Of a stretch of DNA of 15,761 nt, positions 128 through 9,915 are shown one piece after another. The position numbers and the translations under genes are program-made. Below the pieces are notes generated by a model. The model worked only from the letters and a program-made list of their open reading frames with translations, did no database searches and was not told the DNA's origin. Positions within the stretch are counted from its first letter, which is position 1. Every line of letters starts with the position of its first letter. The DNA is taken from IMG/VR virus record IMGVR_UViG_2602041586_000001. The stretch is one strand, 5' to 3'. The DNA comes from a virus. Lineage: Duplodnaviria; Heunggongvirae; Uroviricota; Caudoviricetes.

Positions 128-561
128 GCAGAGTCACCGCGATTATCTCCGCTCTGGTTATCTGCATCATCGTCTGCCTGTTATGGGCTGTTAATCATTA
201 CCGTGATAACGCCATCGCCTACAAAGCCCAGCGCGACAAAGCCACATCCATCATCGCTGACATGCAGAAGCGTCAACGTGACGTAGCAGAACTCGACGCC
301 AGATATACAAAGGAGCTTGCTGATGCTAACGCGACTATCGAAAGTCTCCGTGATGATGTTTCTGCTGGGCGTAAGCGGCTGCAAGTCGCCGCCTCATGTG
401 CAAAGTCAAAGACCGGAGCCAGCAGCATGGGCGATGGAGAAAGCCCAAGACTTACAGCAGATGCTGAACTCAATTATTACCGTCTCCGAAGTGGAATCGA
501 CAGGATAACCGCGCAGGTTAACTACCTGCAGGAGTACATCAGGACGCAATGCCTTCGATGA
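124..561 (+). CDS. Rz: Rz inner-membrane spanin (i-spanin), divergent allele, 145 aa
   Basis: N-terminus [29 protein letters not shown] with a single N-terminal transmembrane helix and a coiled-coil-like periplasmic region; ATGA overlap with the upstream gene; position immediately before the embedded Rz1 frame. Middle and C-terminal parts differ from lambda Rz as I recall it. Confidence 0.9.
317..508 (+). CDS. Rz1: Rz1 outer-membrane lipoprotein spanin (o-spanin), fully embedded in the +1 frame of Rz; true start may be an internal Met
   Basis: ORF in the +1 frame relative to Rz; signal peptide with lipobox (..[10 protein letters not shown]) followed by a proline-rich mature region ([16 protein letters not shown]). 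This embedded architecture is typical of lambda Rz1. Confidence 0.75.
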
Positions 562-734
562 TAGCGATAATTTTACTCATCATCCTTCACATCTGGCTCT
601 GTAGACAGGGTGGTGCTCACTTCTGGAGTGAATCCAGATTAAACATCTCATTGCTGATGCTTGATATTGAGCATTTTGCGCGCGGTAAGGGGCTGCGTTG
701 AGATAAGAGCCAGTCATTACAAATACCAGGATTT

Positions 735-761
735 AGCCTCGCATTCGCGGGGCTTTTTATT
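735..761 (+). terminator. Intrinsic terminator-like hairpin downstream of Rz
   Basis: AGCCTCGC-ATTC-GCGGGGCT forms an 8 bp GC-rich stem (one G-U pair) with a 4 nt loop, followed by TTTTTATT. Confidence 0.5.
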
Positions 762-1051
762 GCCATTACAAAAGCACTTCCTACAGAGTGGCTTTGATAA
801 TGGCTTATACCCTACACGGGATAACTTAACTGATATCCCTTTTAAAGGATAAAGGTATTCAAGCCTGACACATCATGCGCTGTATCGTCGCCGTATTCCC
901 GTATTAACAGAGACCGTAGCCCGACGGGGAACTCCTTCTGCGCGAGTGTGCGGGAATAATCAAAAACGATACACACCGGGGTTACCGGGTACACATATTT
1001 CATCATGCCAGCGAGTCCGGTTCTGGCGCGGAAGAAACCGGACGTTATGAT

Positions 1052-1462
1052 TTAGTGCGGAAATATTTGTGTAGTGTTCTGAATGTTCTCAGTAAAGAGT
1101 AATGAATTATCAAAGGTATAGTAATACCTTTTGTTTTCGTGGATATTTGTAATCCATCTGAAAACCCCTGCTGTAGCAAGATTTTTCCTGTATTCGTAAA
1201 ATGATAACTCTCCTGATTTGAATCCTTTTAATGTGGCTTCTATAAGGCATTTATTTTTTGAAAATCTTACATTTACAACCTTACCCTGTCCTTTTATTAA
1301 AACCGTATTATCGTTTTCAAGAACAAGATGAATATTCTCTGTGGCTAAATAGTAAATGTAATGTGAGACATTGTGACGTTTTAGTTCAGAATAAAACCAG
1401 TGATAGTTTAAATTATTTCGCACTTTATCGAATATTTGTTTAAAAATGGCAACCTGAGCCAT
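1052..1462 (-). CDS. Hypothetical protein, AT-rich moron gene; possibly DUF1398 family (YbcV/YdfO-like right-end ORF of lambdoid prophages), function unknown
   Basis: 136-141 codon ORF in about 30% GC DNA, where random ORFs of this length are very unlikely. The second ATG (MAQVAIFKQ..., at 1460-1462) is preceded by GGAAGG at 7 nt spacing; the first ATG at 1475-1477 has no Shine-Dalgarno. Family assignment is from memory only. Confidence 0.75.
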
Positions 1463-1518
1463 TGTAGTACCTTCCATGTGATATGAGGGGCGTAGTCTGC
1501 ACGATTATCTAAATTGCT

Positions 1519-1752
1519 TCAATCTGGTCTGATCTGTTTTCTGAGCAATTCAGTAATGTCACTCTTTTCTTTGTTTGCTTCAGGAGAAACTCTTTTTTCT
1601 GAGCACAGTCTCCGGCGGCAGGCTTCAATGACCCAGGCTGAGAAATTCCCGGACCCTTTTTGATCAAGAGCGATGTTAATTTGTTCAATCATTTGGTTAG
1701 GAAAGCGGATGTTGCGGGTTGTTGTTCTGCGGGTTCTGTTCTTCGTTGACAT
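1519..1752 (-). CDS. Small basic protein, predicted ribbon-helix-helix DNA-binding fold (YlcI-like / DUF3950-like), 77 aa with a divergent C-terminal tail
   Basis: N-terminal Arg/Thr-rich basic stretch (MSTKNRTRRTTTRNIRF), then a pattern consistent with beta-strand, helix A (NQMIEQINIALDQ), Gly turn (KGSGN) and helix B (FSAWVIEACRRRL). Lies 41-56 bp upstream of the AT-rich ORF on the same strand. I recall the N-terminal ~50 aa as matching a lambda/DLP12 right-end small ORF. Confidence 0.65.
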   Translation of the reverse strand: MSTKNRTRRTTTRNIRFPNQMIEQINIALDQKGSGNFSAWVIEACRRRLCSEKRVSPEANKEKSDITELLRKQIRPD

Positions 1753-2002
1753 GAGGTTGTCCCGTATTCAGTGTCGCTGATTTGTATTGTCTGAAGTTGT
1801 TTTTACGTTAAGTTGATGCAGATCAATTAATATGATACCTGCGTCATAATTGATTATTTGACGTGGTTTGATGGCGTAGATGCACGTTGTGACATGCAGA
1901 TGATAATTATTATCATTTTGCGGGTCCTTTCCGGCGATCCGACAGGTTACGGGGCGGCGACCTCGCGGGTTTTCGCTATTTATGAAAAATTTCCGGTTTA
2001 AG

Positions 2003-2018
2003 GCGTTTCCGTTCTTCT
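2003..2018 (+). promoter_or_regulatory. cosB R3 element (terminase small subunit gpNu1 binding site)
   Basis: Motif CGTTTCCGTTCTTC, one of three copies of CGTTTCC-TTCT-like repeats between cosN and nu1. Confidence 0.7.
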
Positions 2019-2026
2019 TCGTCATA

Positions 2027-2053
2027 ACTTAATGTTTTTATTTAAAATACCCT
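2027..2053 (+). promoter_or_regulatory. AT-rich segment between R3 and R2, candidate IHF site I1 of cosB
   Basis: TAACTTAATGTTTTTATTTAAAATACC lies between the R3 and R2 repeats, the position of the IHF-bent segment in lambda cosB. Confidence 0.5.
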
Positions 2054-2059
2054 CTGAAA

Positions 2060-2075
2060 AGAAAGGAAACGACAG
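2060..2075 (-). promoter_or_regulatory. cosB R2 element (gpNu1 binding site, inverted orientation)
   Basis: Reverse complement reads CGTTTCCTTTCTTT, inverted relative to R3 and R1. Confidence 0.7.
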
Positions 2076-2102
2076 GTGCTGAAAGCGAGCTTTTTGGCCT
2101 CT

Positions 2103-2118
2103 GTCGTTTCCTTTCTCT
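2103..2118 (+). promoter_or_regulatory. cosB R1 element (gpNu1 binding site)
   Basis: Motif CGTTTCCTTTCTCT about 25 bp upstream of the nu1 start. Confidence 0.7.
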
Positions 2119-2140
2119 GTTTTTGTCCGTGGAATGAACA

Positions 2141-2660
2141 ATGGAAGTCAACAAAAAGCAGCTGGCTGACATTTTCGGTGCGAGTATCCGTACCATTCAG
2201 AACTGGCAGGAACAGGGAATGCCCGTTCTGCGAGGCGGTGGCAAGGGTAATGAGGTGCTTTATGACTCTGCCGCCGTCATAAAATGGTATGCCGAAAGGG
2301 ATGCTGAAATTGAGAACGAAAAGCTGCGCCGGGAGGTTGAAGAACTGCGGCAGGCCAGCGAGGCAGATCTCCAGCCAGGAACTATTGAGTACGAACGCCA
2401 TCGACTTACGCGTGCGCAGGCCGACGCACAGGAACTGAAGAATGCCAGAGACTCCGCTGAAGTGGTGGAAACCGCATTCTGTACTTTCGTGTTGTCGCGG
2501 ATCGCAGGTGAAATTGCCAGTATTCTCGACGGGCTCCCCCTGTCGGTGCAGCGGCGTTTTCCGGAACTGGAAAACCGACATGTTGATTTCCTGAAACGGG
2601 ATATCATCAAAGCCATGAACAAAGCAGCCGCGCTGGATGAACTGATACCGGGGTTGCTGA

Positions 2661-2686
<26 letters not shown>
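2141..2686 (+). CDS. nu1: Terminase small subunit gpNu1 (181 aa)
   Basis: MEVNKKQLADIFGASIRTIQNWQEQGMPVLRGGGKGNEVLYDSAAVIKWYAERD... matches lambda Nu1 as I recall it (N-terminal winged-HTH); located just downstream of cos. Confidence 0.97.
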
Positions 2687-6367
<3,681 letters not shown>

Positions 6368-9561: not shown

Positions 9562-9915
9562 GTGGCTGATTTCGATAACCTGTTCGATGCTGCCATTGCC
9601 CGCGCTGATGAAACGATACGCGGGTACATGGGAACGTCAGCCACCATGACATCCGGTGAGCAGTCCGGTGCTGTGATACGTGGTGTTTTTGATGACCCTG
9701 AAAATATCAGCTATGCCGGACAGGGCATGCGCGTTGAAGGCTCCAGCCCGTCCCTGTTTGTCCGGACTGATGATGTGCGGCAGCTGCGGCGCGGCGACAC
9801 GCTGACCATCGGTGAGGAAAACTTCTGGATAGACCGGATTTCGCCGGATGATGGCGGAAGCTGTCATCTCTGGCTTGGGCGGGGCGTACCGCCTGCCGTT
9901 AACCGTCGCCGCTGA
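9562..9915 (+). CDS. FII: Head-tail connector protein gpFII (GTG start)
   Basis: (M)ADFDNLFDAAIARADETIRGYMGTSATMTSGEQSGAVIRGVFDDPENI... as lambda FII; GGGAGG upstream of the GTG. Confidence 0.92.
   Translation: MADFDNLFDAAIARADETIRGYMGTSATMTSGEQSGAVIRGVFDDPENISYAGQGMRVEGSSPSLFVRTDDVRQLRRGDTLTIGEENFWIDRISPDDGGSCHLWLGRGVPPAVNRRR

Follow-up and report, generated by a model that had tools for sequence, protein, structure and literature searches.

The DNA analysed here, called the window throughout, is a stretch of 15,761 nucleotides from the Caudoviricetes record IMGVR_UViG_2602041586_000001, and it comprises the lysis-to-packaging junction of a lambda-like prophage followed by the structural genes. 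Our subject is the interval between the lysis genes and cos, in which two small genes run against the late operon: one related to ynfO of Escherichia coli K-12 and, downstream of it, one related to ydfO. The original prediction, made from the letters alone, had described two antisense genes 41–56 bp apart at this place, and the list of open reading frames (ORFs) confirms this. We consider it reasonably probable that these are two accessory genes that evolve separately and do not form a two-part system, and that their pairing reflects linkage. The features on which the argument turns are as follows.

1519–1752, minus strand: ynfO-type gene, 77 amino acids (aa), DUF3950 / YlcI-YnfO family (ORF list, hidden Markov model (HMM) search)
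1597–1752, minus strand: its conserved N-terminal domain, aa 1–52, the only part common to the copies in Shiga toxin (Stx) phages and to distant copies
1463–1518, minus strand: spacer between the two genes, 56 bp, with a –10-like GATAAT (1510–1505) and a GGAAGG Shine-Dalgarno sequence (1475–1470)
1522–1538, minus strand: sequence AACAGATCAGACCAGAT resembling a PdhR box, among the final codons of the ynfO-type gene and about 60 bp upstream of the DUF1398 start
1052–1462 (136 aa) or 1052–1477 (141 aa), minus strand: ydfO-type gene, DUF1398 family (ORF list, RefSeq, HMM search)
875–994, no strand assigned: backbone segment common to lambda (the bor-lambdap78 interval) and Stx phage YYZ-2008 (just downstream of Rz)

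RefSeq starts the DUF1398 gene at the inner ATG at 1462, which gives 136 aa; this ATG has the GGAAGG Shine-Dalgarno sequence 7 nt upstream, and the ATG at 1477 is without any. The gap between the two ORFs is 41 bp with the start at 1477 and 56 bp with the start at 1462. The GC content is 31.1% in the DUF1398 gene, 44.0% in the DUF3950 gene, and 55% in the whole window. Of the earlier claim that the downstream gene lies at about 30% GC against more than 55% in flanking DNA, the first part is accurate, whereas the second is true only of the structural module further right (53–62%): the immediate flanks are at 46.9% (562–1051) and 41.5% (1753–2140), and Rz, Nu1, and terminase A are at 51.8%, 52.9%, and 54.0%. 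When lambda-type copies of the 77-aa gene are compared with Stx-type ones, codons 1–50 have a ratio of nonsynonymous to synonymous substitution rates (dN/dS) of 0.04–0.11 with dS of 0.8–1.6, and the 136-aa gene has a dN/dS of 0.30 against lambda. Both ORFs are under purifying selection and are therefore genuine genes, not chance reading frames. The 1.58-kb interval is 100% identical to annotated E. coli chromosomes, including that of AB66, where the two products are annotated as "YlcI/YnfO family protein" and "DUF1398 domain-containing protein," and its DNA is present, in parts, in 4914 of 5426 complete E. coli genomes.

In HMM searches, the 77-aa protein scores 74.8 bits against Pfam PF13132 (DUF3950; cut-off 25; E = 4.9e-21) and 35.7 against NCBIfam NF041551 (YlcI_YnfO_N; cut-off 30). 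Its neighbor, the 136/141-aa protein, matches Pfam PF07166 (DUF1398) at 147 bits (cut-off 22; E = 3.3e-43) over profile positions 1–119 of 119 and, over residues 1–140, PDB entry 2HH8, the nuclear magnetic resonance (NMR) structure of E. coli YdfO (E = 1.4e-69). Both families had been named at the outset, as DUF3950-like and DUF1398-like, and these searches bear the names out; the accompanying statement that the families are functionally uncharacterised holds as well, since we found no established function for DUF3950 or DUF1398 proteins in the literature.

DUF3950 is a narrow family, with 112 representatives among 1.84 billion clusters at 50% identity, and its genuine genomic matches all lie in Enterobacterales; a tblastn match in Pasteurella phage Pmp7 was discarded because it falls on the opposite strand of an annotated repressor gene. 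Among E. coli variants of the 77-aa protein, the first ~50 residues are nearly invariant, and the C-terminal tails (aa ~50–77) fall into several unrelated classes. In agreement with this division, blastn homology of YYZ-2008 within the gene is limited to window 1612–1752, and homology with lambda breaks off at window 1535–1590, inside the tail.

Ribbon-helix-helix (RHH) proteins follow the pattern of a strand, helix A, a G/N-x-S turn, and helix B. The conserved DUF3950 pattern is t-K-N-I-R-F-P-h-x-L-I-E-x-I…N-F-S-A-W-V-x-E-A-C, and the 77-aa protein is laid out as a basic N-terminal arm, a predicted RHH core at aa ~12–55, and a variable tail. An AlphaFold2 (AF2) monomer model with a predicted local distance difference test score (pLDDT) of 74 has an extended segment at 12–18, helices at 19–32 and 37–55 (pLDDT 75–86), and a weaker helix at 59–73. 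The top 50 Foldseek matches of this model, all with E of at least 1.1, are mostly RHH or RHH-like proteins (Arc, ParD, TacA, MazE, the CopG-family protein StnY, NikR, AmrZ, MatP, CdbA, and ORF56) and also include plant TCP-domain chains. The best PDB profile match is a CopG-family RHH protein, 9kkd, in register (E = 0.21); a HicB-like PHROG model matches with E = 0.007; and hhalign places NIRFP on NLRWP of Arc with P = 0.014, against 0.59 for a Cro control. No sequence or structure match of DUF3950 to RHH families reaches significance. The evidence is concordant and each line of it is statistically weak; we regard the 77-aa protein as quite probably an RHH DNA binder, so that the RHH-like character proposed for it at the outset stands as the best fold assignment.

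The DUF1398 protein has no signal peptide and no hydrophobic segment in its sequence. Two database labels for it, "head protein" (PHROG 413) and "putative envelope protein," were rejected on this ground and because its homolog was solved in solution and the gene is antisense and non-essential. In a PADLOC search its only match was a sub-threshold one to Csx23 (E = 0.025), with none for the 77-aa protein, and among HMMs for toxins, toxin-antitoxin (TA) systems, and defence, none scored above threshold for either protein. The literature offers transcript changes and growth phenotypes for relatives of the gene. Expression of ydfO rises 116-fold on ionic-liquid shock. Overexpression of YdfO is cited as protective (PMC4077768). 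In the DLP12 prophage of K-12, the homolog ybcV and its neighbor ybcW are raised more than 1000-fold on overexpression of T4 MotB, which perturbs H-NS repression (PMC7827196), and in an evolved strain ybcV expression went up along with that of bgl and kilR (PMC7181518). These two studies bear indirectly on the H-NS silencing and lysogen expression that the original prediction suggested. The lambda homolog, lambdap78, is non-essential by CRISPR interference (PMC10695390). Lambda phages that escape the Vulcan defence system have lost lambdap79, apparently because Qin prophage DNA was swapped into the region (bioRxiv 10.64898/2026.09.04.749371); these recombinants are viable, which shows that lambda can grow with the Qin-type arrangement.

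The two genes are uncoupled in their distribution. By tblastn, matches to DUF3950 come from 155 phage records and matches to DUF1398 from 43. The DUF3950 gene is the only one of the two in Stx phages YYZ-2008 and JLK-2012; it lies there between the lysis genes and an unrelated HNH-TerS-TerL packaging operon, on the strand opposite to the late operon, and diverges from the first gene for packaging. YYZ-2008 shares window 875–994 and 1612–1752 without everything between, and because it keeps the flanks without the interior, the DUF1398 gene looks like an insertion into a conserved backbone. Judged from the alignments, segment 875–994 marks the left edge of that insertion: blastn gives 90% identity to positions 3961–4081 of one locus (L004), and the segment also falls in a longer lambda-type high-scoring pair of 82% identity (window 876–1535, equal to 1501–2160 of locus L002), which spans the DUF1398 gene as well. 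The DUF1398 gene has deviant GC content and presence/absence polymorphism between related phages, being missing from Stx phages that keep 875–994 and the DUF3950 gene, and its earlier description as a moron is thus upheld.

Distant DUF3950 loci in other Enterobacterales were found with a trimmed alignment, the full alignment being too divergent for a locus search. No DUF1398 gene lies within ~5 kb of DUF3950 in any of 40 such loci. An integrase is nearby in 15 of the 40, nine of them having a primase-helicase in addition, and these contexts indicate P4-like satellites or capsid-forming phage-inducible chromosomal islands. Independent satellite examples were also found, both here and in a published study (PMC13612085). 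Other contexts among the 40 are a position after cydC (nine), between sopB and pipD (two), and in a Tatumella metabolic locus (three); the upstream neighbor is divergent in 25. In E. coli, the conserved DUF3950 stretch occurs at 9861 places in 4184 of 5426 genomes, with a maximum of 12 per genome. Genomes of O157:H7 have 8–9 DUF3950 places and, in those seen in the DUF1398 search, a single DUF1398 place. DUF1398 DNA is present in 5376 of the 5426 genomes, largely as the stand-alone chromosomal gene ycgX, which has been described in its chromosomal context (PMC3509220).

Two distant members are of separate note. In one satellite-like element, a 129-aa protein (P0309; L088 4714–5103) fuses DUF3950 to an N-terminal region of Terminase_2 (E = 1.7e-6), and its gene is the only opposite-strand gene between integrase and primase. 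In Salmonella enterica subsp. diarizonae and arizonae (L046 and L047, ~4995–5171), a 58-aa DUF3950 homolog lies in an island like Salmonella pathogenicity island 5, between sopB (IpgD family) with a small chaperone-like neighbor and a C69 peptidase gene (pipD-like).

Some database entries call for caution. Proteins of 177–233 aa that seemingly join DUF3950 to DUF1398 (P0134, P0130; one cluster has 761 members) look like a gene-calling artefact of the genetic code: the TGA stop of ynfO is read as Trp and, with the K-12-type spacing, the two genes share a frame, which the 1-nt difference in the window breaks. Furthermore, loci L009, L012–L044, L053, and L060, which come from dozens of assemblies of unrelated taxa (Kitasatospora, Cohnella, Pedobacter, Flavobacterium, Streptomyces, a Nanosynbacter metagenome-assembled genome, and others), carry the lambda right end at 94–100% identity, many of them on contigs of ~3.5 kb. 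The size and content of the contigs point to lambda DNA that had served as a sequencing control and was not removed from the assemblies, and many frameshifted ENA proteins on ~3.5-kb contigs likely share this origin.

The DNA between the two genes gives some indication of how they might be expressed. A terminator scan with folding found no convincing terminator there, and the spacer RNA folds no better than shuffled sequence (z = +0.86). The earlier suggestion that the pair is co-transcribed is accordingly plausible here. Just past the DUF1398 stop lies a hairpin (1017–1045) with a 10-bp stem (CCGGTTTCT…AGAACCGG), with no U-tract on either strand and z = –1.9; by its sequence it is not a canonical terminator. 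The spacer GATAAT could serve as a promoter –10 element. It follows the PdhR-like box, which is 1 base off the K-12 site AAcaGGTcagACCAgaT, and PdhR may bind the candidate box at 1522–1538. In K-12, site AAcaGGTcagACCAgaT was mapped by genomic SELEX (selection of bound genomic fragments) in the ynfO/ydfO region, with PdhR sites upstream of ybcV and at the ynfO end, and ybcV mRNA is down 10-fold in a pdhR mutant (PMC7660256).

From these observations we propose the following picture. The 77-aa ynfO-type gene would be part of the conserved lambdoid backbone and encode a small, probably dimeric RHH DNA-binding protein, in which the basic N-terminal arm and the beta-strand (RNIRFP) would read DNA, the two helices would form the core, and the tail would be variable. 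Its position, divergent from the start of the neighboring operon, recurs in lambdoid phages with two unrelated packaging systems and in satellites; genes for small repressors or regulators are usually placed in this way. Late transcription runs in the opposite direction, and for this reason the gene is probably expressed in the prophage state and not in the late lytic phase. The ydfO-type gene would be an AT-rich moron inserted downstream of the ynfO-type gene and dispensable for phage growth. Its product is predicted to be a soluble alpha+beta protein with the YdfO fold; the gene is likely xenogeneically silenced and stress-induced, possibly from a PdhR-associated promoter of its own in the spacer, and the protein probably has its effect on host physiology, a toxin function being unlikely. 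Since no terminator separates the genes, co-transcription is possible in the Qin-type arrangement.

A number of observations weigh against this picture. Among the 78 IMG/VR loci holding the best 80 DUF3950 matches, DUF1398 is the next gene after a YnfO-type tail in 73 of 74 copies, just as ybcW comes after a YlcI-type tail, and the association of tail and DUF1398 could reflect a functional tie and not just linkage. We note, however, that the recombination breakpoint lies inside the tail, and simple linkage therefore explains the association. No operator that travels with the DUF3950 gene was found across lambda-type and Stx-type copies, and the upstream DNA of these two phage types is unrelated although their N-terminal domains are ~85% identical. 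A scan for sigma-70 promoters found no minus-strand site, the intergenic DNA at 1753–1951 included, and inspection by eye gave poor candidates only. DSSP calls no beta-strand in the AF2 monomer model of the 77-aa protein, because the dimer partner is missing from a monomer model. For the DUF1398 protein, AF2 reached a pLDDT of 45 and gave no fold-based clue, its alignment being shallow (66–100% identity), and the case for a host-directed role draws only on second-hand literature statements and on transcript changes.

One rival reading is a type II TA or regulator-effector cassette, an idea raised in the original prediction. The YnfO RHH protein would then act as antitoxin or autorepressor and its C-terminal helix would neutralise the DUF1398 protein. 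The gene layout is of this kind, the genes being co-oriented with a 41–56 bp gap and no terminator between, and the 73 of 74 viral-contig copies in which a YnfO-type tail precedes DUF1398 point the same way. A conserved pair is nevertheless not what we find: Stx phages, satellites, and chromosomal islands have a DUF3950 gene with no DUF1398 gene alongside; the opposite-strand ybcW splits the pair in lambda and DLP12, where the YlcI tail is short and different; ycgX stands alone; and DUF1398 DNA is in 5376 of 5426 E. coli genomes against 4184 for DUF3950. Outside the Qin-type arrangement, the genes are apart far more often than together, and because they are uncoupled in this way, the module idea is unsupported. 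No toxin, TA, or defence model matches, YdfO was produced and its structure solved by NMR (2HH8), and its overexpression is cited as protective, all of which makes the cassette an unlikely explanation. We judge as similarly improbable that one or both proteins are made in the lysogen and protect it from other phages, by superinfection exclusion or as a defence system. In favor of this idea, genes for lysogenic conversion such as bor are found between Rz and cos, the neighboring lambda gene lambdap79 (ybcW) is sensed by the Vulcan system, both genes are non-essential and oriented against the late operon, and there are very weak matches to HEPN_AbiA_CTD (E = 0.014, short of the cut-off) and to Csx23 (E = 0.025). 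Against this, no PADLOC family is matched at a meaningful score, the weak matches fall below every curated threshold, the literature reports no defence phenotype, and ycgX lies outside any prophage.

The position of the DUF3950 gene also invites the reading that its product serves packaging by binding DNA at or close to the site where packaging begins, perhaps to modulate terminase access or specificity. Indeed, the gene immediately precedes the packaging operon in both of two systems that are unrelated, Nu1/A with cos and HNH-TerS-TerL, and the distant member P0309 fuses DUF3950 to a Terminase_2 region. Yet the packaging genes are expressed from the late operon, to which the DUF3950 gene is antisense, P0309 lies in a satellite between integrase and primase and not beside a terminase, many distant members are in non-phage chromosomal contexts, and the two phage types have no conserved DNA between this gene and their packaging genes. 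For the packaging of lambda in vitro, terminase, integration host factor, and cos suffice, which also counts against a packaging role, and we give this reading little credence. The notion that one or both ORFs are non-coding artefacts of AT-rich DNA could appeal to the want of a good promoter and to several other small ORFs in the region that are clearly spurious, but it has virtually no chance of being correct: the dN/dS values of 0.04–0.30 with high dS already refute it, the curated HMM matches are far above threshold, and the structure of a homolog has been solved.

We therefore return to two separately evolving accessory genes as the preferred reading. The finding is largely ordinary, because these are known ynfO-type and ydfO-type genes that lie side by side without obligate pairing; both are already catalogued in K-12, in lambda, and in thousands of genomes, lambda itself carries versions of both very common genes, and nothing in this window is new. 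The main added value is negative, namely that the pair is not to be read as a TA module. This sequence does not make the role of the YlcI/YnfO and DUF1398 proteins more tractable. A small DNA-binding protein encoded in up to a dozen prophages per cell could matter for prophage cross-regulation in Shiga-toxin strains. One might speculate, as a long shot, that the YlcI/YnfO RHH protein is a widely shared and so far unrecognised regulator of prophages and satellites that acts on a common operator and lets lambdoid prophages and satellites within one cell influence each other, for instance where lysis and packaging genes adjoin, and that the Qin-type C-terminal helix might also control the DUF1398 protein, making the two a new conditional effector pair.

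The surroundings of the interval are those of a lambda-like phage. The cos elements listed below bear names that we presume to apply from established knowledge of lambda cos.

124–561: Rz, with Rz1 nested within it
735–754, plus strand (that of the late operon): intrinsic-terminator-like hairpin 3' of Rz, from the terminator scan, with an 8-bp stem of 6 GC pairs followed by TTTTTATT
1753–1951, no strand assigned: intergenic DNA from the 77-aa gene to cosN, with two repeat elements and a cosQ-like GGGTCCT (~1922–1928)
1822–1854, no strand assigned: inverted repeat ATCAATTA-N17-TAATTGAT with perfect 8-bp arms, from the repeat search
1900–1916, no strand assigned: perfect 17-bp palindrome ATGATAAT-T-ATTATCAT, left of cosQ
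1952–1963, plus strand: cosN cohesive end GGGCGGCGACCT, read from the sequence
2004–2016, 2059–2071, and 2105–2116, plus strand: cosB Nu1-binding repeats R3, R2, and R1, from the repeat search (D4, I1, I2)
2141–2686, plus strand: Nu1
2661–4586, plus strand: terminase A

The cos stretch 1952–2116 has 96–97% DNA identity to lambda-type phages and DLP12. The repeats at 1822–1854 and 1900–1916 are present in lambda-type phages, Qin, and DLP12; because they are absent upstream of the Stx-phage DUF3950 genes, we assign both to the region left of cos and not to the gene. The octamer ATGCAGAT precedes the inverted repeat (1816–1856 region), and the same octamer stands before the palindrome 78 bp further right. 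The palindrome resembles a Fur box (GATAAT-n-ATTATC), agreeing at 14 of 19 positions with the 19-bp consensus and at 15 of 19 in lambda, with the positions counted by eye. It also overlaps a plus-strand promoter-like sequence, GTGACA-16-TATCAT (10/12; window 1889–1916), which points across cos into Nu1. An Rfam scan of 400–2300 found nothing meaningful.

Three further small ORFs lie in the region. One of 50 aa (549–701, plus strand) is hydrophobic, overlaps the end of Rz, is hypothetical in RefSeq, and has no family match. Another of 54 aa (842–1006, minus strand), also without a family match, is 45 bp downstream of DUF1398 on the same strand and spans the counterpart of the lambda bor-promoter region; bor itself is absent from the window. 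The third, of 85 aa (1768–2025, minus strand), crosses cosN and cosQ; its match (E = 5.5e-26) is to a PHROG without assigned function, which is probably a family of spurious calls over the conserved cos region; in noisy assemblies this ORF appears fused to DUF3950 (P0045, P0070, P0104).

The closest known counterpart of the interval is the pair ynfO (b4533)-ydfO (b1549) in the Qin prophage of K-12, which is like the window in gene order, orientation, and protein lengths of 77 and 136 aa. Qin DNA is 92.6% identical over window 1014–2669, and the Qin pair is divergent from nohA, the Nu1 homolog, across a cos remnant. The Qin spacer is 57 bp against 56 bp in the window, and this 1-nt difference places the two window ORFs in different frames. 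The DUF1398 allele of the window has, by eye, ~80% aa identity to Qin YdfO, the protein of 2HH8. Qin is a decayed prophage, whereas the window has an intact lambda-like lysis and structural module.

Lambda and DLP12 are arranged differently at the same site beside cos. The lambda right end reads bor, lambdap78, lambdap79, a ylcI-like ORF, and cos, and DLP12 reads borD, ybcV, ybcW, ylcI, and nohD; the lambda ylcI-like ORF is without annotation in reference records J02459.1 and NC_001416.1. Lambda lambdap78/YbcV is a DUF1398 homolog with 76% aa identity to the window protein, and the N-terminal domain of the lambda ylcI-type ORF has 94.5% identity over aa 1–55 to that of the 77-aa protein. From the N-terminal half of the small gene through cos, the DNA is 96–97% identical to lambda and DLP12. 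In contrast, the YlcI tail of lambda and DLP12 is short (…TSEKRAYTSIKSDEE), unlike the tail in the window, and lambda, HK629, and DLP12 have bor to the left and the opposite-strand ybcW/lambdap79 between the genes, both of which the window lacks.

At the level of protein families, the sequence and predicted topology of the 77-aa protein fit the succession of basic arm, strand, helix, G-x-x-N-F-S turn, and helix expected of the RHH superfamily, which comprises Arc/MetJ/CopG and the antitoxins ParD, TacA/KacA, RelB, and the C-terminal domain of HicB. DUF3950 differs from those families in being separate, narrow, and confined to Enterobacterales. The DUF1398 gene, for its part, compares with the lambdoid morons bor and lom in the sense of Hendrix and Juhala, having likewise a deviant GC content (31% vs. 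55%) and being dispensable. Although it is unlike classic morons in that no promoter/terminator pair of its own is demonstrated, it shares with bor both its orientation against the late operon and its presence or absence between otherwise similar phages.

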